Source: a virus (lineage: Duplodnaviria; Heunggongvirae; Uroviricota; Caudoviricetes). Taken from it: a stretch of DNA of 11,145 nucleotides. The stretch lies in the IMG/VR virus record IMGVR_UViG_2802429224_000014; one strand, given 5' to 3'. Shown here in pieces: positions 1,118-11,145 of the stretch (within the stretch, counting starts at the first letter, position 1; every line of letters begins with the position of its first letter). Under the pieces are notes generated by a model. It did not search any database. It was not told the DNA's origin and was given only the letters and a program-made list of their open reading frames with translations. The position numbers were made by a program, and so were the translations under genes.

Positions 1118-1320
1118 AGGTTTCCGAAAATATCAGTGAGTTAGCGATTAAGCTGGCGAGTAATTAAACTACGAAAATTTCGTAGTTTGTGACTATCTGA
1201 AAGATAGTCGGTTGATCCGGCCTCAGCCGTTGGCTGTTCCCGAAAATATCAACGGGTTAGGCTGGTTTCCCCGATGTTCGCCGCTGGCGAATTTCGAAAA
1301 TATCAACCAGTTACCGCCGT
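1118..1320 (+). repeat. three direct repeats with core CGAAAATATCA (at about 1125, 1243 and 1296), with two short palindromes between them (ACTACGAAA-A-TTTCGTAGT at 1169..1187; GACTATC-TGAAA-GATAGTC at 1191..1209)
   Basis: Read directly: gtttCCGAAAATATCAgtgagTTAgc / gttcCCGAAAATATCAacgggTTAgg / aattTCGAAAATATCAaccagTTAcc. Function unknown; the third copy overlaps the 3' end of the 1311..1595 ORF. Confidence 0.6.
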
Positions 1321-1595
1321 AACCGTTCCGGTTTCTTCCAGTGGTAAGTATTTTTCGCGCTCTCCCTCCGTTGCTGAGAACGGCGACGACATGCCAGCAA
1401 CTCGAGAACTCTGGTTCGTATGTTGCGCATATCCACGCCGTTAAGCTCGATACCGTCACGGCGCATCACCTCAGCCACTACACGCGCGTAATTTTCGGCT
1501 ACCACGCTGTCCGGCTGCATGGCCTCCTGTTTGCCTGCTGGCGGTCTGATTCCGGCAATCTGGCGAATCATTTTGAGCATTTCGGCTTCGGTCAT
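1311..1595 (-). CDS. hypothetical protein, about 94 aa, start chosen at the second ATG
   Basis: Minus-strand ORF; GGAGG lies 8 nt upstream of the ATG at 1595 (the ATG at 1601 has only a 2-nt spacer). No recognisable motifs. Sits just beyond the cosQ side of cos-A. Confidence 0.4.
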   Translation of the reverse strand: MTEAEMLKMIRQIAGIRPPAGKQEAMQPDSVVAENYARVVAEVMRRDGIELNGVDMRNIRTRVLELLACRRRSQQRRESAKNTYHWKKPERLRR

Positions 1596-1626: not shown

Positions 1627-1845
1627 GCCGTAATTGTGGCGGGTCCTTCCTGGAAAATGAAATACCGGGGGTAGCCATACGCGCAATTCTTAACTGTTTA
1701 TGAAAATTTTTCGGGAAAAGTCAGATCCGTTCTTCTTCTCTGTAACTCATTGTTTAATGGTAAAATCATCAAAAAAAGAAAGGATCTGACAGTGGTCATT
1801 TTGGGCCAAAAATGACGTTATCAGATCCTTTCTCAGTTTTGTTCA
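1627..1845 (+). other. cos-A: lambda-like cohesive-end site in plus orientation (cosQ-like 1638..1653, cosN-like about 1664..1686, cosB with R3-like 1721..1738, IHF-like AT-rich segment 1743..1770, inverted R2-like 1777..1792, R1-like 1821..1836)
   Basis: By eye the sequence follows the lambda cos junction as I remember it: GCGGGTCCTTCCTGG (lambda CGGGTCCTTTCCGG), a GC-rich cosN-like core ACCGGGGGTAGCCATACGCGC, TTTATGAAAATTTTTCGG (lambda TTTATGAAAATTTTCCGG), CCGTTCTTCTTC (present in lambda R3), then GAAAGGATCTGACAG and TCAGATCCTTTCTC (lambda GAAAGGAAACGACAGG and CTGTCGTTTCCTTTCTC). R-site consensus here is TCAGATCC(T/G)TTCT in a direct, inverted, direct arrangement. Confidence 0.7.
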
Positions 1846-1860
1846 ATAATTGCGCGGCTG

Positions 1861-2445
1861 TCACTCACCTTTCTGTTGCCGTAATTTCTCCGGCACGTTT
1901 CCGGTTGTTTCCATCAGGTAGTCCTTCAGAATGCGGGGCAGGTTATCGGCAGTTTTAGCGCACGCATTACAGACGCGTGCTGTTTCTTTCCTCAGGCCCT
2001 CGATCATTGCCGGAGTCATCGCGGGGAACTGCCTTTGCATTGTGAGCGGTAAACTATCCATGATCGAAGAAATCTGGCGCGCCAGACCACGAAGCGCATA
2101 GAGAACGAACTCAGTATCTGTAACTTCCCCCGTCTCTCTGGCGTTCTTCAGTTCCTGCCCGTCCGCCTGTGCTTTGGTAAGACGGTAGCGTTCGTACTCT
2201 GTTGTGCCTGGCTGTAAATCTGATTCACCAGCAGCACGTAAATCATCAAGCTCCCTGCGGAGTTTTTCGTTTTCGATGTCCTTCTCCCTCTGTGCATACC
2301 ATTCGATCACCTGTGCAGAGTCGAAAGTCACTTCCACACCTTTACCCCCACCAGATACATGGGGAAGCCCTTGCGTTTGCCATCGTTCAATCGTGCGCGG
2401 ATCGACGCCAAAAATCTTCGCAATATTATTTTTATTAACATTCAT
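1861..2445 (-). CDS. terminase small subunit, lambda Nu1-like
   Basis: 194-aa ORF with AAGGAA RBS 7 nt upstream of the ATG at 2445. The N-terminal half aligns by eye with lambda Nu1 (MNVNKNNIAKIFGVDPRTIERWQTQGLPHVSGGGKGVEVTFDSAQVIEWY...IENEKLRREL...DLQPGTTEYERYRLTKAQADGQELKNAR versus lambda MEVNKKQLADIFGASIRTIQNWQEQGMPVLRGGGKGNEVLYDSAAVIKWY...). Confidence 0.9.
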   Translation of the reverse strand: MNVNKNNIAKIFGVDPRTIERWQTQGLPHVSGGGKGVEVTFDSAQVIEWYAQREKDIENEKLRRELDDLRAAGESDLQPGTTEYERYRLTKAQADGQELKNARETGEVTDTEFVLYALRGLARQISSIMDSLPLTMQRQFPAMTPAMIEGLRKETARVCNACAKTADNLPRILKDYLMETTGNVPEKLRQQKGE

Positions 2446-2459
2446 CTATCAATTCCTTA

Positions 2460-2668
2460 TCAAAAACCAGTTCCGACATGAAACGCCAAAAAAACAGGAT
2501 TTTTGGGCTTTATGATGTCGTATGTTTCTGGTGGTTGATTTTAATAAAAACAAACAGTTATGCGCGAGAAGTACCGACATGCTTTTTCCTGAAAAATTTT
2601 CATAAACAGTTAAGAATTGCGCGTACACGTACCCCCGGTGTTTCAGATTCCGGAAAGGACCCGTGAAA
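2460..2668 (-). other. cos-B: second lambda-like cos site, in minus orientation, immediately upstream of the Nu1-like gene (cosQ-like 2651..2664, cosN-like about 2620..2642, R3-like 2565..2582, R2-like about 2513..2527, R1-like 2467..2482)
   Basis: The reverse complement reads CGGGTCCTTTCCGG (identical to the lambda cosQ-proximal motif), ACACCGGGGGTACGTGTACGCGC, TTTATGAAAATTTTTCAGG, then GCATGTCGGTACTTCTCG, CATAACTGTTTGTTTTTATTAAAATCAACC (lambda CATAACTTAATGTTTTTATTTAAAATACC), GAAACATACGACATCAT and TTCATGTCGGAACTGG. The cosQ/cosN part is about 85% identical to cos-A with a 35-bp perfect core at 2591..2625 matching 1677..1711 inverted; the R-site consensus differs (CATGTCGGxAC). Confidence 0.7.
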
Positions 2669-2696
2669 ATTGGGGTGATCACCACCGTTCCGGACA

Positions 2697-2729
2697 CAAA
2701 AAAATCGCGAGGCCTTGCCAACCTCGCGA
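2697..2729 (-). terminator. rho-independent terminator between the capsid operon and cos-B/TerS
   Basis: On the minus strand, TCGCGAGG-ttggcaagg-CCTCGCGA hairpin (8-bp stem) followed by TTTTTTTGTGT, 14 nt after the stop of the 141-aa ORF. Confidence 0.6.
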
Positions 2730-2742
2730 ACGTTCATTTCAG

Positions 2743-3168
2743 TTACTTAACAGACAGCAACAGCTTTTCATCTTCGGTCAGTCCGGCGTTACCATCACCG
2801 GCTGCTGGCCCAACACATTTCGGGCTGTGCTTTTCCATGTACGCATCAAACAAAAAAGCCGTTTTCTTTTCCTGCATCATTGCCTGGGCATCCACAGTAG
2901 CCAATAACGTTTGTGCATAGGTTACTGTCATTGCTTCAGAATCACACTCAATCAGCTTACTGGTGAACTCAGGGTATTTTGATGCCAGCGGTAAAGCCTT
3001 GATACCCTCTATGCGCTGTTTATCACTCTCAGCCTTTGCAGTAAGCACCGTTCGGGCTTCTGTCAGTGATGCGCCATTATTCGCGAGATTTTCCGCAAGC
3101 GTCTGGTATTTCTGCGCTTCAGGCAGTGCCATGATCAATGCTCTGGTTGAATTTGCTTTCTCAGTCAT
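2743..3168 (-). CDS. hypothetical head-associated protein, 141 aa (possible scaffold or packaging-accessory role; unassigned)
   Basis: ORF in the capsid operon directly downstream of the gpD-like gene, with a 14-bp gap. No confident similarity recognised; position relative to E/D parallels lambda FI but the sequence does not obviously match. Confidence 0.55.
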   Translation of the reverse strand: MTEKANSTRALIMALPEAQKYQTLAENLANNGASLTEARTVLTAKAESDKQRIEGIKALPLASKYPEFTSKLIECDSEAMTVTYAQTLLATVDAQAMMQEKKTAFLFDAYMEKHSPKCVGPAAGDGNAGLTEDEKLLLSVK

Positions 3169-3182
3169 AAATCACCACAAAA

Positions 3183-3512
3183 TTATTGCCCTAAAGGCTG
3201 TACGGAAATACCGGAACCAACAAAAGCCGACACTTTTTTCTCGAACGTGTCCGCTGTATCAGGCCAGTTAATTTCATCGATATTAAAAACCCCGCACTTA
3301 TAAACCTGTGCGCGGTTTTTTGTGGCCGTGTTAATGTCCGATATGGTCAGATACACCGCCTTACCGGGTGTACCGTCCCACTCAACCATCAGGCCTGCGC
3401 CGTTCTGCATCAGCGGAGTTCTCGCTTTAATTTCTCCGGCACTGGCAAAACAGGCCAGCGTGCTGACCAGTTCCTGCGTGCCGGAAAGTAATTGCGTGTA
3501 AGGTGTTGGCAT
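3183..3512 (-). CDS. head decoration protein, lambda gpD-like
   Basis: 109-aa ORF with AAGGGGA RBS. Shares the gpD pattern by eye: TPLM...WDGT...YKxGxF...WP...AFxGxxIS (lambda ...[21 protein letters not shown]...[36 protein letters not shown]). Confidence 0.85.
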   Translation of the reverse strand: MPTPYTQLLSGTQELVSTLACFASAGEIKARTPLMQNGAGLMVEWDGTPGKAVYLTISDINTATKNRAQVYKCGVFNIDEINWPDTADTFEKKVSAFVGSGISVQPLGQ

Positions 3513-3522
3513 ACGATCCCCT

Positions 3523-4578
3523 TTATTTCACTTCGACGGTAACAAAGCGACCAATATCCACGGGTACTGGCTGCGGGGCGCTGTGCGTCTGCACGTATTC
3601 AATCGCCGGATCGCCCGGTACGATATAATTTTTCGGGTAGTACATCCCCTCAGAAAATCCCTCGCGTGCCGCGTCCTGATCCATGATGGCACCATAAGCA
3701 ACAAGGCCTTTATTTTCGGTATTGCCGAAAACCATCATGTTTTGTTTCAGGAAATATTGCTGCTGCCCGTTTTCGTCGTCATAACGACCGGAATAAACCA
3801 CGAGCGCCACATCACCGAGATACCCCTTGAAGCTGACAACGCCGCCCAAATCTTTTAGCGCAAGTTCAAGTGACGAGTTTGAACCGCGACGCGTGTCCAG
3901 GAGTTCGCGGAATCGACGGAACGAGCGCAAAATACGCCAGGCTTCGCCACCCATGACGATAATATTTACCGTACCTTCGGAAAAATCAGCGTAAGCCTCA
4001 ATGTCGCTTATCGGATCAAACGTTTCGGCATCCTGTTTTGACCATTCTTTCCCGCCAGCCTGCGTAATATGATTGGTTGCGGGTAATCCCCAGTCAATTT
4101 CATAACGCTCAATGCCTTCGCCCTCAATAACGTTACGGCCTGTTGTGATGGCATTGACCGCCAGCCATTCAACACGCGCTTTGATGGCTGCAAGCTGTTT
4201 TTTCTGGCTGTCGTGAACCATTTTTACGCGGCGTAGTGCCGGGGAAGACTGACCATTGCCGATCTGTTCTCCAGCCATGCGCATGATTGTTTTAGTGGGA
4301 TCAATAACGTGTTTGGGCTTCATATAACCCGGCGTGAAAGTGTTCGTTGTAAAACCTTTGTCACGCATAACCTGACTGCCTGACATTGGTGAACAAAACG
4401 GACTCATGACCACGTTTTCAATGTCCAGCGTATCAAGCGCAATATCTCGCGTACTGAACGTGGCGATATTCGGAAAAAACAGCGTCGTAAAGAGCGGATT
4501 AAATTTAAATTCCGGCACATCTTCGCGCCCGATATTTTTCAGTAGCGTTGGTGTGCTTACCAGTTGCAGCGCTGTCAT
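3523..4578 (-). CDS. major capsid protein, lambda gpE-like
   Basis: 351-aa ORF, start overlapping the upstream stop (ATGA). Conserved gpE blocks recognisable by eye: FKFNPLF..LFF, FTPGYMKPKH, ITQAGGKEWSK, DIEAYA, VNIIV, LDTRRGSNSSLE..LKDLG..VSFKGYLGDVALVVYSGRY, YPKN, GDPA, SAP. Confidence 0.93.
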   Translation of the reverse strand: MTALQLVSTPTLLKNIGREDVPEFKFNPLFTTLFFPNIATFSTRDIALDTLDIENVVMSPFCSPMSGSQVMRDKGFTTNTFTPGYMKPKHVIDPTKTIMRMAGEQIGNGQSSPALRRVKMVHDSQKKQLAAIKARVEWLAVNAITTGRNVIEGEGIERYEIDWGLPATNHITQAGGKEWSKQDAETFDPISDIEAYADFSEGTVNIIVMGGEAWRILRSFRRFRELLDTRRGSNSSLELALKDLGGVVSFKGYLGDVALVVYSGRYDDENGQQQYFLKQNMMVFGNTENKGLVAYGAIMDQDAAREGFSEGMYYPKNYIVPGDPAIEYVQTHSAPQPVPVDIGRFVTVEVK

Positions 4579-5899: not shown

Positions 5900-7306
5900 T
5901 TACAGTGGTCCTACATCATCGCCGTCGATGTGAATCACGCCGTCTTTTTCCAACTTGGATAGCCAGCGCCGCATATTTTTCACATCGTACCCAAGCCTTT
6001 TCATGTCATCGCGCAACAACGGGATAGTGCATTTATCGCCTCGCTGTATGCGTGAACGGATACAGCCCCAAAGCGCTGTATGATTCTCCGTCTTGTTCCC
6101 GGCCTCCTCGATGCGTTCCAGTTCAGCAGGGGCGCGGGGAACGTCAATCACCACCATGGACACAATCTCTTCGCCATCTGTATCGGTAAACACCTCCACG
6201 CTTTTAAGGTCGTATGCGCTTTCTTTTGGCTCCTCTGCGTCCTTCATCTTCGTACACGCCGCCACCAGTGCTGTAACGTCTGAATTTTCCCGGCTGATTC
6301 GGTACTCTGCATCCAGTGCAGCACGGAATGCGCTGGAACCACGCGCCCCCTTTGTTTCATCCTTGCCGGAATGGTGAACCACCAGCACCGTGGCCCCTGT
6401 GGCCTGCTTTATCGCGTCACACCCCTGGATAAATGCGCCCATATCACGGGAATCATTTTCATCATTCCCACCAAAGCAACGGGCCAGCGTGTCTATCACA
6501 ATCAGCCGCACATTTTCGCCCGTTCTGCTCTTAACAAGTCCGGCAGTCCTGATAACCTGCTCCACATAGTCAGGCGATGCAGGGAAGACAGGCGCGTTAA
6601 CGATGCACAAATCCGTAACCACCTTGTCGTGGGTTATCTCCCACGCCTTAACGCGGCGTTTTACGCCCATGCTGCCTTCACCAGCGATATAGATAACCGC
6701 GCCCTTACTGACCCTGCGACCTCCCCATGCCATACCTGTGGCAACATGGCACGACCAGGAAATGGCGAGGAACGATTTATAAGAACCGCTGGCCCCGTAG
6801 GTGCTGCATAATGATTCAGCCGGAATAAGCCCCTTAATTACGTAGCTTTGCTGCGCGTCGAATCCCTCAGAACCCCATGAGATGGGAAGTGTGATTTTTC
6901 GCTTTCCACCATTCATGACCAGGCTTTCCCCACGTTCCCAGGTTTCTTTAAGGCGCGGTAGTTGCTCGCTCCAGTCCTCCAGTAGTTCGAAATTCTCTGA
7001 AAGTAACCGCGCTTCCCGGACACCTGCGATCGCCAGTTTGGTGGCAATGGTCAGCATCTGCATATCGTCCAGGTTTCCGGCGCGTATGACCTTTGCTCTG
7101 TATCGTCCTTCATCAACAATCTGTAAATTGTCCAGTTCGCTTAACTGATAACGGCCCAGGTAAACCGGAGGGATGGGATCGCCTGCTTTTTTGGCCTGTG
7201 CAATCATGTAATGTTCTGCAAAGGAGTGAGCATTATCACCCGCAAAAATAACCGCCTCAGTGTGTTTATCTTTCGGTAACAGTTTTACGTTTGGTGCCAG
7301 TTTCAT
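5900..7306 (-). CDS. replication protein: primase-like N-terminal region fused to a RecA-like (AAA_25/RepA-type) ATPase
   Basis: 468-aa ORF with AGAGGT RBS. Walker A-like GASGSYKS and Walker B-like RLIVIDTLARCF are visible, followed by VLVVHHSGKD. The domain order is typical of satellite/PICI primase-replicase proteins; assignment is by motif, not search. Confidence 0.85.
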   Translation of the reverse strand: MKLAPNVKLLPKDKHTEAVIFAGDNAHSFAEHYMIAQAKKAGDPIPPVYLGRYQLSELDNLQIVDEGRYRAKVIRAGNLDDMQMLTIATKLAIAGVREARLLSENFELLEDWSEQLPRLKETWERGESLVMNGGKRKITLPISWGSEGFDAQQSYVIKGLIPAESLCSTYGASGSYKSFLAISWSCHVATGMAWGGRRVSKGAVIYIAGEGSMGVKRRVKAWEITHDKVVTDLCIVNAPVFPASPDYVEQVIRTAGLVKSRTGENVRLIVIDTLARCFGGNDENDSRDMGAFIQGCDAIKQATGATVLVVHHSGKDETKGARGSSAFRAALDAEYRISRENSDVTALVAACTKMKDAEEPKESAYDLKSVEVFTDTDGEEIVSMVVIDVPRAPAELERIEEAGNKTENHTALWGCIRSRIQRGDKCTIPLLRDDMKRLGYDVKNMRRWLSKLEKDGVIHIDGDDVGPL

Positions 7307-8475: not shown

Positions 8476-8760
8476 TTATGCAGCTTTCTTACCGTACGGA
8501 TTATTGACTTTATCTACAGCAGGTGGGTTACGAACCCACCAAAGCACATCAGAGAGAAGCCACGCACAGCTATTGCGCCCGAAATGACAACGAAGCGGGA
8601 AACGCCCTTCATTTTCCATTTTGAAGCGAGTTGAGCGCGACAGACTGGTGATTTCCTGGCATTCCTTTTCACGGATACGGCGATCAAATTCAAAACCGTA
8701 TTCTTCAAGAAGCGCCCGGCGTTGTTCTGGAGTTGGGGGAATGAATGTAGTTTTTGTCAT
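8476..8760 (-). CDS. alpA: AlpA-family transcriptional regulator / excisionase-like HTH protein
   Basis: Start taken at the ATG at 8760 (GGAGG RBS 4 nt upstream), giving 94 aa. Contains the AlpA signature EITSLSRSTRFKMENEGRFPLRCHFGRNSCAWLLSDVLWWV (compare the family pattern LSRSTIYR...GxFP...W...V..W). Confidence 0.8.
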   Translation of the reverse strand: MTKTTFIPPTPEQRRALLEEYGFEFDRRIREKECQEITSLSRSTRFKMENEGRFPLRCHFGRNSCAWLLSDVLWWVRNPPAVDKVNNPYGKKAA

Positions 8761-8842
8761 ATTGCCTCCACTGTATCTATGCTTGCGGAGGCTATTTTGC
8801 AATCTTTAATACTGGATTAAAATACAGTAGTAATCATAGAAA

Positions 8843-9918: not shown

Positions 9919-11145
9919 TTAACCTCTATTCGATACAGGTAACAGCACCACATTTTGATGATTACCCGCCAGAAGTTCTAATCGGCCATACCACTTATTC
10001 AACGCATCCATTTTCTCAGGTAAGTACAGACTACGGTTATAAATAGCCATCACCCCCGGCAATGCATGACCAAGTAAAAGCTCTACAATATGTGGCGCAA
10101 TACCCATATTATTTAAACCTGTAGAAAATGTTCTGCGCAAATCGTGAAGCGTCCATGGCTCATTATGATGAAAATCTTTGTATAGCCTACGCCCTTTAAG
10201 CGAAGCAGCCTGGCGGGAACGTTCTTCACCCAGTACAATTCCTGTTTTTCCCGTTTCCTTTTTTAGATCCTCAATCCATGGGCGAATGCCCTCTGGAATT
10301 GGACGAACTATTTTTTCACGAGTTTTGCTGTGTTCTTTAGGAACCGTCCAAATCCATGACTGAAAATCCCATTCACTCCACCGGGATAATCTTACTTCCA
10401 TTGTTCGCGCCCCAAACAGCACAAGCAACTTAAGCAGACGAAGATAATAAAGTTGCTGTTCATCGCTATAAGTACACCGCCATACATCAGCTAACTCACT
10501 ATCTGACAGCACCCTATCACGCTGCCCCGATGGTTGCCCTACATCCTGGATTGTCATAAAAGCCAGGGCATCACATGAGGCATAACGGCGAACCTTGCAG
10601 AATCTTAAGGCCTGTTTACAAATCTGGAACATTCGCCCGGCAGTGATTGGCCTGGACTGGTTAATTTCATCAAAACATGCCACCCAGTGACGCGTTTCAC
10701 ACCGGGATAACGGATAGTGGCCAAGACGCGGATAAATATGCTTACGTAATTGCGCCCGCACCAGTTCCTCGTCACTACGTTTTTTTCTTGCGTAATGAAT
10801 TAGCCAATATTCAAGGGCATCATGGACAGTTACGGGGTTAAGGTTTTCTTCTGCGCTAAGTTCTAATTCAAGTCGTGGATTCAGCCCTTCCGCATACCAT
10901 TTTCGGCATAGTTCCCTCTTCTCCCTAGCCATTTTCAACGACATGTCAGGGTAACGCCCAAGAACAATGCGCTCTAACTTGCTCCCACGCCCACCAAGAC
11001 GATAAGAGAAAACCCAACTAATGCATCCCATCATGGATACTTTGATGCTTAATCCTTCACCATCCGCAATGGTAATTACTGAATCCCGCTTTACGCCGAG
11101 AAGCGATCTTAATTTTTTATCACTCAGTTTGTTTGTGCCAGCCAC
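9919..11145 (-). CDS. int: tyrosine recombinase/integrase, P4-family; N-terminus at or just beyond the window edge
   Basis: 408 codons from a GTG at the window edge to TAA at 9921..9919. N-terminal region resembles the P4-type integrase arm-binding domain (KLSDKKLRSLLG...ADGEGLSIKVS). C-terminal catalytic residues are visible: HDLRRTF, LLGHA and a tyrosine in AIYNRS. Confidence 0.92.
   Translation of the reverse strand: MAGTNKLSDKKLRSLLGVKRDSVITIADGEGLSIKVSMMGCISWVFSYRLGGRGSKLERIVLGRYPDMSLKMAREKRELCRKWYAEGLNPRLELELSAEENLNPVTVHDALEYWLIHYARKKRSDEELVRAQLRKHIYPRLGHYPLSRCETRHWVACFDEINQSRPITAGRMFQICKQALRFCKVRRYASCDALAFMTIQDVGQPSGQRDRVLSDSELADVWRCTYSDEQQLYYLRLLKLLVLFGARTMEVRLSRWSEWDFQSWIWTVPKEHSKTREKIVRPIPEGIRPWIEDLKKETGKTGIVLGEERSRQAASLKGRRLYKDFHHNEPWTLHDLRRTFSTGLNNMGIAPHIVELLLGHALPGVMAIYNRSLYLPEKMDALNKWYGRLELLAGNHQNVVLLPVSNRG

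Follow-up and report, generated by a model that had tools for sequence, protein, structure and literature searches.

The 11,145-nt stretch of the virus record IMGVR_UViG_2802429224_000014 (the window, meaning the whole stretch analysed) carries a packaging module in which a small terminase gene, terS, lies between two convergent cos sites. The sites, cos-A (1632..1845, plus strand) and cos-B (2460..2671, minus strand), have a common part for the large terminase (TerL) of a helper phage, namely cosQ, cosN and the I2 box, and a differing cosB for the small terminase (TerS). As read from the sequence, they probably serve two helper specificities. One cos is best read as serving the specificity protein of the element itself, the other as a copy of the cos of its natural helper. 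The observations behind this concern the anatomy of the sites, the matches of their specificity classes, their conservation, the co-occurrence with prophages and inversions of the terS segment. The whole stretch is a satellite that bears a packaging module: a phage-inducible chromosomal island (PICI) of the EcCICFT073 family, roughly 10 kb in size, from Escherichia coli and located beside hpt. An earlier interpretation from the letters alone (the sequence-only reading) had taken it for a lambdoid genome to which an unusual second cos was added; it is identified as a PICI by int, alpA, capsid homologues and a RepA-type helicase.

Anatomy of the two cos sites

Both sites were aligned with the cos of lambda, phage 21, PhiR5_1 and SerU-LTIIb, and nine cos sites were included in a larger alignment. 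Each of the two holds all elements in the lambda order: cosQ GGGTCCTT, the cosN region, the I2 box, R3, the I1 block TAACTnnTTGTTT, R2 and R1. This order also follows the annotated features of phage 21. The cosQ core, the I1 block and the I2 box are invariant across the nine sites. By these alignments, cos-A and cos-B are complete predicted cos sites of lambda-type architecture that converge on terS. The sequence-only reading had proposed two inverted sites of this kind flanking a Nu1-like gene, and both the alignments and the Pfam match of the gene (PF07471, E 4.5e-67) bear this out.

cos-A would package rightwards. Its cosQ-like motif GGGTCCTTCC (1641..1650, plus strand) is followed by the 12-mer GGTAGCCATACG (1670..1681, plus strand), a putative cohesive end that aligns with the lambda cohesive end GGGCGGCGACCT. 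It belongs to the cosN class CCGGGGGT-N7-ACGCGCAA, which is also present at the cos of resident prophages. A perfect 35-nt core (1678..1712, plus strand) includes the I2 box TTTATGAAAATTTT (1697-1710). The R3 box CAGATCCGTTCT (1722..1733, plus strand) and the R1 box CAGATCCTTTCT (1822..1833, plus strand) are direct; the R2 box, also CAGATCCTTTCT, is inverted (1777..1788, minus strand). The I1-like IHF block TAACTCATTGTTTA (1743..1756, plus strand) is located between R3 and R2, which by order of elements corresponds to the place of the annotated I1 of phage 21. The motif CAGATCCKTTCT, or CAGATCC(G/T)TTCT, has three exact copies in cos-A in direct, inverted and direct orientation, compared to 0.07 expected in the window. 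cos-A ends about 25 nt past R1, flush with the terS stop codon; its neighbour is the 3' end of terS, a gene that runs on the other strand.

cos-B occupies the canonical place upstream of terS, with R1 about 20 nt ahead of the ATG, and would package leftwards. In its direction of reading, the cosQ-like motif GGGTCCTTTCC (2652..2662, minus strand) is followed by the putative 12-mer GGTACGTGTACG (2622..2633, minus strand), aligned to the lambda cohesive end, and by the I2 box TTTATGAAAATTTT (2593..2606, minus strand). The cosB is of the phage 21 type. It has two exact CATGTCGG boxes, R3 (2574..2581) and R1 (2473..2480), both on the minus strand, and one degenerate box. The latter is the weaker, inverted R2 box GATGTCGT (2514..2521, plus strand), which aligns with the R2 of phage 21 and PhiR5_1. 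The alignment places an I1-like IHF block, TAACTGTTTGTTTT, at 2547..2560 on the minus strand.

The two sites form an inverted repeat with arms of 124 nt (1632-1755 and 2548-2671) that are 78% complementary. Aligned in register on the TTTATGAAAATTTT box, the cosQ-cosN-I2 part (1632-1714) is 84% identical between cos-A and cos-B, and the core at 1678-1712 is the exact reverse complement of 2591-2625. About 85% identity and a perfect core of 35 bp had been estimated before. In 200 shuffles of the region 1300-2900, the longest exact inverted repeat was 18 nt. The cosB parts are 39% identical, and the described difference between two direct-inverted-direct triplets of R sites was recovered. Likewise, the 12-mers GGTAGCCATACG and GGTACGTGTACG differ at 4 positions, the number given in the sequence-only reading for the overhang regions.

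The centre of the cosN-aligned 12-mer is hypervariable among otherwise similar sites: GGTAGCCATACG, GGTACGTGTACG, GGTCATAGCACG, GGTCTGGGGACG, GGTACGGGTACG and GGGCGGTAGACG were found in the compared sites (window 1670-1681 and 2622-2633, L012:2675-2690, L014:6050-6065, L008 and L010). The flanks CCGGGGG and ACGCGCA stay constant. The variable centres suggest cohesive ends private to each element, which could block the joining of helper and satellite ends.

Small terminase and specificity classes

The gene between the cos sites (1861..2445, minus strand) encodes a full-length small terminase of the Nu1 family with 194 amino acids. Residues 1-162 match positions 1-162 of the 164 positions of the Pfam profile PF07471, and residues 1-98 align with residues 1-98 of the lambda TerS (PDB 6hn7_B, E 3e-38). 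The family features are thereby represented along the whole protein: an N-terminal winged helix-turn-helix, a central region for self-assembly and a C-terminal region for TerL binding. An identity as Rpp was rejected: Rpp proteins have 144-153 amino acids, a TerS-like DNA-binding domain and an unrelated C-terminal dimerisation domain, while the island protein is Nu1-like throughout. Its match to RppC covers 50 residues only (E 0.012). Compared with the TerS of the island in strain 2014C-4135, the ratio of nonsynonymous to synonymous substitution rates (dN/dS) is 0.08, which indicates strong purifying selection on terS where it is co-directional with the island. The C-terminus is of the lambda, PhiR5_1 and PhiR12 type, plus a private conserved tail. 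This tail, ETTGNVPEKLRQQKGE, comprises the last 12 residues (window 1861-1900, minus strand) and is kept in the 76% identical 2014C-4135 island. It is missing from the TerS of lambda, phage 21, PhiR5_1 and PhiR12 and may be a satellite-specific interaction surface.

R boxes and recognition helices of the small terminases co-vary. Lambda combines CGTTTCC with SIRTIQNWQ. Phage 21, the prophage of strain HNSQ2209 and the island TerS combine CATGTCGG with DPRTIERWQ, and the helix of the island protein, VDPRTIERWQ, is identical to that of phage 21 gp1. The motif CAGATCC(G/T)TTCT is accompanied by DVRTIT(G/A)WQ in SerU-LTIIb (DVRTITGWQ), in the Stx2k prophage of STEC313 and in a phage contig from a metagenome-assembled genome. 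In view of this co-variation, cos-B is best read as cognate to the island's own TerS and to helpers of the phage 21 type, and cos-A as cognate to a different helper TerS. The relation would extend the rules that predict from sequence which phages mobilise which islands, by R-box type versus TerS recognition helix.

cos-B resembles the annotated cos of phage 21 (M81255; R4, cosN, I2, R3, I1, R2, R1, I0) in the order of elements, the CATGTCGG consensus and the place upstream of the small terminase gene. The identity is 77% across I2, R3, I1, R2 and R1. The R3 block is identical to that of the HNSQ2209 prophage cos (22/22). Differences are the cosN core, GGTACGTGTACG in cos-B and GGGCGGCGACCT in phage 21, and the weaker R2. 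The C-terminal half of the island TerS is not 21-like (57% overall identity), and unlike phage 21 the island is a satellite without TerL.

cos-A has the AGATCC(G/T)TTCT core in all three boxes, the cosN class CCGGGGGT-N7-ACGCGCAA and the spacing of the cos of SerU-LTIIb (KU052038) and the STEC313 Stx2k prophage. It shares 74.6% identity with the SerU-LTIIb cos. The phage site precedes its cognate terS, whereas the island site adjoins the 3' end of a terS of other specificity, and the spacers are 61-64% identical. Compared with lambda, both island sites have identical architecture and spacing, a common I2 box and a common cosQ core, and the R boxes of cos-A share the half TCCnTTCT with the lambda R boxes. 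The island deviates from lambda by another R-box specificity, another cosN and two inverted sites in place of one. In species-representative genomes, the exact 25-mer of the island R3 had no match, and a degenerate I2 plus R3 pattern had one match, a phage contig binned as Collinsella that represents a third S-type phage.

The window-type cassette or its terS-deleted form was present in 32 of 5426 complete E. coli genomes. A cos-TerS pair of the SerU/Stx2k type occurred in half of these (16/32, compared to 38/5426 overall). A 21-type prophage with the matching cosN class was found in 8/32 versus 41/5426, and either class in 20/32 versus 74/5426, that is about 1.4%. The enrichments have Fisher p values of 5e-28, 5e-11 and 6e-31, respectively, in a test that ignores clonality, for example of STEC306, STEC307 and STEC308. 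Among the relatives, HNSQ2209, cq9 and U90 are closest to the window, and all three have the 21-type class. The co-occurrence with two classes of lambdoid prophages hints indirectly that a helper phage may induce and excise the island and transfer it at high frequency.

The prophage class matching cos-A includes the Stx2k-converting prophage of STEC313 (L014:258-1498, 6000-12659) and the LT-IIb enterotoxin prophage SerU-LTIIb (L003). This makes toxin-converting phages of animal-associated E. coli likely helpers of the satellite. Genes for virulence and resistance are spread by PICIs at high frequency; the helpers implicated for the island include Stx2k- and LT-IIb-converting prophages.

Relation to EcCICFT073 and other satellites

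The sequence-only reading had considered the arrangement undescribed. A precedent is published. In EcCICFT073, two cos sites named cos1 and cos2 were reported to be functional (Fillol-Salom et al. 2018, PMC6092414; Fillol-Salom et al. 2019, PMC6739421). Each cloned cos renders a plasmid transducible, and the double deletion abolishes transfer (PMC6092414). RppA bound to a phage TerS recognises the cosB of cos1, a site that depends on this complex (PMC6739421). The main texts of both papers are silent on the orientation of the sites, report no phage cosB and leave the purpose of two cos sites open.

The CFT073 sequence, matched to the supplementary Figure S1A, has cos1 upstream of rppA, in the phage-like position, and cos2 on the other strand, downstream of the gene; the pair converges on rppA. 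The unit cos1-rppA-cos2 sits between homologues of the 141-aa and 94-aa genes of the window. Both islands have the gene order capsid, decoration, scaffold-like, cos, helix-turn-helix specificity gene, convergent cos and 93/94-aa gene. In both, the two cos sites have a common cosQ/cosN and differing cosB, with the upstream site cognate to the island-encoded protein. The window differs by its 194-aa Nu1-family TerS in the place of a 144-153-aa Rpp, and its cosN class is not that of lambda. Its upstream cos has the full three-box cosB of the 21 type. By inspection, no three-box cosB is seen in cos1, where the sequence past the I2-like box leads directly into rppA.

A stretch of 179 nt in EcCICFT073 cos2, which extends from cosN past R2 into R1, matches the cos of the phage isolates PhiR12_1 to PhiR12_5 at 93% identity. 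The DNA-binding domain of the PhiR12 TerS is different again. The resident lambdoid prophage of CFT073 at icd (L009:39560-39960) has a cos that reads by eye in the alignment as a phage 21 cos. Its cosB is present in neither cos1 nor cos2; the cos2 boxes CATGTCCGG are one base longer than the CATGTCGG of phage 21. New aspects are the full-length TerS in place of Rpp within the EcCICFT073 layout, two sites with readable specificities and the recognition of EcCICFT073 cos2 as a near copy of the PhiR12 cos. The TerS-bearing form looks like an ancestor of the Rpp system.

P4, SaPIbov5 and SaPIbov4 are likewise satellites that copy a helper cos for packaging by the helper terminase, and SaPIbov4 is cited as having two putative cos sites (PMC6092414). 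They are unrelated elements with other terminase families. The searchable literature on satellites of the P4 and SaPI type contained no report of a cos pair with two assignable specificities on either side of a satellite's terS. A search of literature outside subscription journals found no study of satellites with two cos sites later than those of 2018 and 2019.

Conservation, exchange and inversion of the module

In the 2014C-4135 island, which shares 76% identity with the window, terS is flanked by the same two cosB types. The R3, R2 and R1 of cos-A are conserved between both islands at 100%, 95% and 95%, compared to 64-68% for the spacers and the cosQ-I2 part. The R boxes of cos-A appear to be under selection, which is evidence that both sites matter. 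The cosN class changes jointly in both sites, being the lambda GGGCGGCGACCT in 2014C-4135 and CCGGGGGT-N7-ACGCGCAA in the window. The arms within the window are 84% alike, compared to 65-80% with their counterparts elsewhere, which points to exchange between the arms. Both cos sites are intact where terS is internally deleted, as in eight genomes, or frameshifted. In VTB97432v, the one deletion case examined, terS is reduced to its first ~20 and last ~70 nt.

These observations bear on whether one site, most likely cos-A, is a non-functional and harmless by-product of recombination between island and phage at cos. The cassette does recombine readily, as inversions, swaps of rpp and terS modules and terS deletions attest. 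Transfer of EcCICFT073 by lambda and phi80 did not require cos2 and rose upon its loss (PMC6092414); 12 of the 32 cassette genomes are without a matching prophage. A by-product is nevertheless unlikely. It would not explain R boxes at 95-100% next to spacers at 64-68%, nor an end of cos-A exactly at the place where a phage terS would start. Further points against it are the persistence of cos-A where terS is deleted, a cosN class that tracks that of the partner site across islands and the strong enrichment, in cassette genomes, of the prophage class whose R boxes are those of cos-A.

The terS segment of TUM1881 is inverted relative to the same flanks. There, a cosN of the cos-B type is joined to R boxes of the cos-A type, with the converse on the other side, which places the crossover within the 35-nt core. 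Both orientations occur in two island backbones. In the capsid-type backbone, the window and STEC313 are co-directional and TUM1881 is antisense; in the ProQ/PerC-type backbone, A19 is co-directional and IGC, A36 and VTB97432v are antisense. A Hin-, Gin- or Fim-type invertible element was rejected: no invertase or recombinase was found in or beside 1600-2750, and the sole recombinase is the island integrase, 7 kb away. Given this absence, the inversion is read as occasional homologous recombination and not as a switch.

The cos arms could act as an invertible switch that turns terS on, when co-directional with the island operon, and off, when antisense. The occurrence of both orientations in two backbones would fit, as would the fact that all inspected cases of terS decay are antisense (the A36 frameshift and the VTB97432v deletion). 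This is very unlikely in a module that has neither an invertase gene nor a recombinase site. The homology of just 124 nt at 78% with a 35-nt core fits rare RecA events, and the orientation varies between diverged lineages, not within one assembly. Moreover, terS is already separated from the upstream operon by an intrinsic-terminator-like hairpin with a T run (2705..2729, minus strand; stem of 10 pairs, 6 of them GC) between the scaffold-like gene and cos-B.

The sister island of U90 is integrated at the same hpt site and has 97.5% backbone identity. It carries an Rpp-like gene for 146 amino acids and its own cos pair in the slot of the terS cassette. An Rpp version within a near-identical backbone indicates that the packaging module is exchangeable and swapped as a unit. 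Besides the different cos pair and the Rpp-like gene, the U90 island contains about 250 nt of extra DNA (L010:1840-2960).

ProQ/PerC-type islands with the same cos pair encode a DUF1441 protein just upstream (L008:5008-5517, L013:2010-2519), which belongs to another small-terminase family (phrog_141, E 7e-55). It was rejected as an Rpp, having no PDB similarity to RppC. Among the three antisense cassettes of these islands, that of IGC has an intact Nu1-type terS; the gene has a frameshift in A36 and an internal deletion in VTB97432v.

Proposed packaging mechanism

Helper induction would lead to excision of the island and its replication into concatemers. The available small terminase would bind the matching cosB, IHF would bend the DNA at I1, and the helper TerL would be placed on the adjacent cosN. 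Packaging would start at cosN and proceed in the direction of cosB, to the right for cos-A and to the left for cos-B, and stop at the next cos in the same orientation. In the established polarity of lambda, an inverted cos met from the wrong side is ignored. Actual cutting and use of both sites are predicted from the features described above. Since each cosB is matched by a different small terminase, the second cos would widen the helper range. The 124-nt inverted homology would permit inversion of the terS segment and exchange of terS or rpp versions of the module between islands. Of the functions suggested by the sequence-only reading, which included packaging in either direction, use by two helper terminases with different cosB specificity is favoured: cos-B is of the 21 type, cos-A belongs to a second prophage class and both classes are enriched in cassette genomes.

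A third suggestion, a decoy, takes cos-A mainly as a binding site for the helper small terminase or holoenzyme that interferes with helper packaging and does not start packaging of the island. cos-A is an exact mimic of a helper cosB, PICIs as a rule interfere with the packaging of their helpers (PMC6739421), and due to the convergence an initiation at cos-A would run directly into cos-B. A pure TerS sponge would have no need for the complete cosQ-cosN-I2 part that is retained. Each cloned EcCICFT073 cos made a plasmid transducible (PMC6092414), and with a full helper-type cos the island would be packaged in any case once it replicates; decoy and substrate cannot be separated by sequence alone. 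On balance, a role mainly as a decoy is quite unlikely. The opposite orientation of the sites also invites a model in which they package chromosomal DNA on both sides of the island by bidirectional in-situ transduction. This is hardly credible for convergent sites, each of which is aimed into the terS segment and not outwards; moreover, cos packaging needs a second cos in the same orientation, and the chromosome is without one.

Several points weigh against the use of the two sites by two helper specificities. Deletion of EcCICFT073 cos2 alone raised the transfer mediated by lambda and phi80, so a second cos can have a cost (PMC6092414). If both convergent sites were cut on one monomer, a 0.95-kb fragment would be released and packaging aborted, a cost that fits the published gain of transfer. 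The cosN cores of both sites differ from that of lambda, and the nick positions for 12-nt cohesive ends in cos-A and cos-B are putative, being taken from the alignment. Neither prophage class was present in the 12 genomes mentioned above, and clonality affects the Fisher test. The co-occurring prophages have 21-type C-termini in TerS and 21-type N-termini in TerL (92-98% to phage 21 gp2). By the pairing rule of lambda and phage 21, the C-terminus type of the island TerS implies that it might not engage the prophage TerL. The island TerS may, like Rpp, work in mixed oligomers with the TerS of a helper, or it may serve a third class of helpers. No third class that fits it was found. Finally, the downstream cosB of U90, with ACTTCCGGTTT boxes, had no counterpart in the phage collection, and E. 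coli genomes gave cosN/I2 matches only. The rule that the downstream cos is a phage copy holds for two of the three islands tested.

A more specific version of the use by two helper specificities is put forward tentatively, at somewhat less than even chances. The module could be a two-socket device, in which the upstream cos is fixed to the island TerS or Rpp and the downstream convergent cos is copied from a local lambdoid helper and can be exchanged, the source being the SerU/Stx2k class in the window and the PhiR12 class in EcCICFT073. The cosQ-cosN-I2 arms would be the recombination substrate for swapping, inverting and homogenising the module. If this is true, sites of the cos2 type become essential with natural helpers. 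The published tests of EcCICFT073 used only lambda and phi80, whose TerS recognise neither of its two cosB, and for that reason its second cos looked dispensable. With its readable specificities, the present island offers a testable answer to the question on the purpose of the second cos which the authors of both papers left open.

The island and its other genes

The window encodes a tyrosine integrase, an AlpA regulator, a RepA-type helicase, a single-stranded DNA-binding protein, gpE-like capsid and gpD-like decoration proteins and a Nu3/scaffold-like protein. This gene set is typical of Gram-negative PICIs of the EcCICFT073 type (PMC6092414). The genes int, alpA and that of the RepA helicase are all on the minus strand. 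The island of HNSQ2209 has 98.4% identity with the window and is located in the hpt–gcd interval. Capsid-forming PICIs (cf-PICIs) were excluded as an identity: the phage-type genes are limited to gpE-like, gpD-like and scaffold-like genes and terS, and a TerL, portal, protease and connectors of its own are missing from the window. A P4-like identity was excluded by gene content. A search for the attachment (att) core compared the hpt side of the HNSQ2209 island with its int side for direct repeats of 13 nt or more; it found 12-mers at best, and the island ends were therefore left undefined.

The tyrosine integrase (9919..11145, minus strand; PF00589, PF13356, PF22022) is encoded by an open reading frame that reaches the window edge. 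It is preceded in coordinates by the alpA-family regulator, a PICI hallmark (8476..8802, minus strand; PF05930, E 3.8e-11), and the RepA-family replicative helicase (5900..7306, minus strand; Pfam AAA_25, E 7.7e-43). Homologues of the gpD-like head decoration and gpE-like major capsid proteins are located at 3183..4578 on the minus strand (PF02924, PF03864) and compare with c1500/c1499 of EcCICFT073 (PMC6092414). The neighbouring 141-aa protein (2743..3168, minus strand) borders the cos pair on the cos-B side. It is similar to the C-terminal, Nu3/scaffold part of a head maturation protease (phrog_53 positions 500-577 of 583, E 1.6e-8). Together with it, the gpE-like and gpD-like proteins make up a set of scaffold, capsid and decoration proteins by which the island might redirect capsid size.

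On the other side, the cos pair is bordered by a conserved 94-aa gene (1311..1595, minus strand; phrog_1561), and its homologues do likewise in EcCICFT073, TUM1881 and 2014C-4135. Between this gene and the hpt-side end of the island, the region 960-1314 of the window contains four units of ~45 nt, each with a small GC hairpin followed by TTCCGAAAATATCAACGGGTTAG. In EcCICFT073, comparable units come after the homologue of this gene (L009:3650-3830). Possible roles of the units are arm-type sites for integrase or excisionase or another end-proximal signal.

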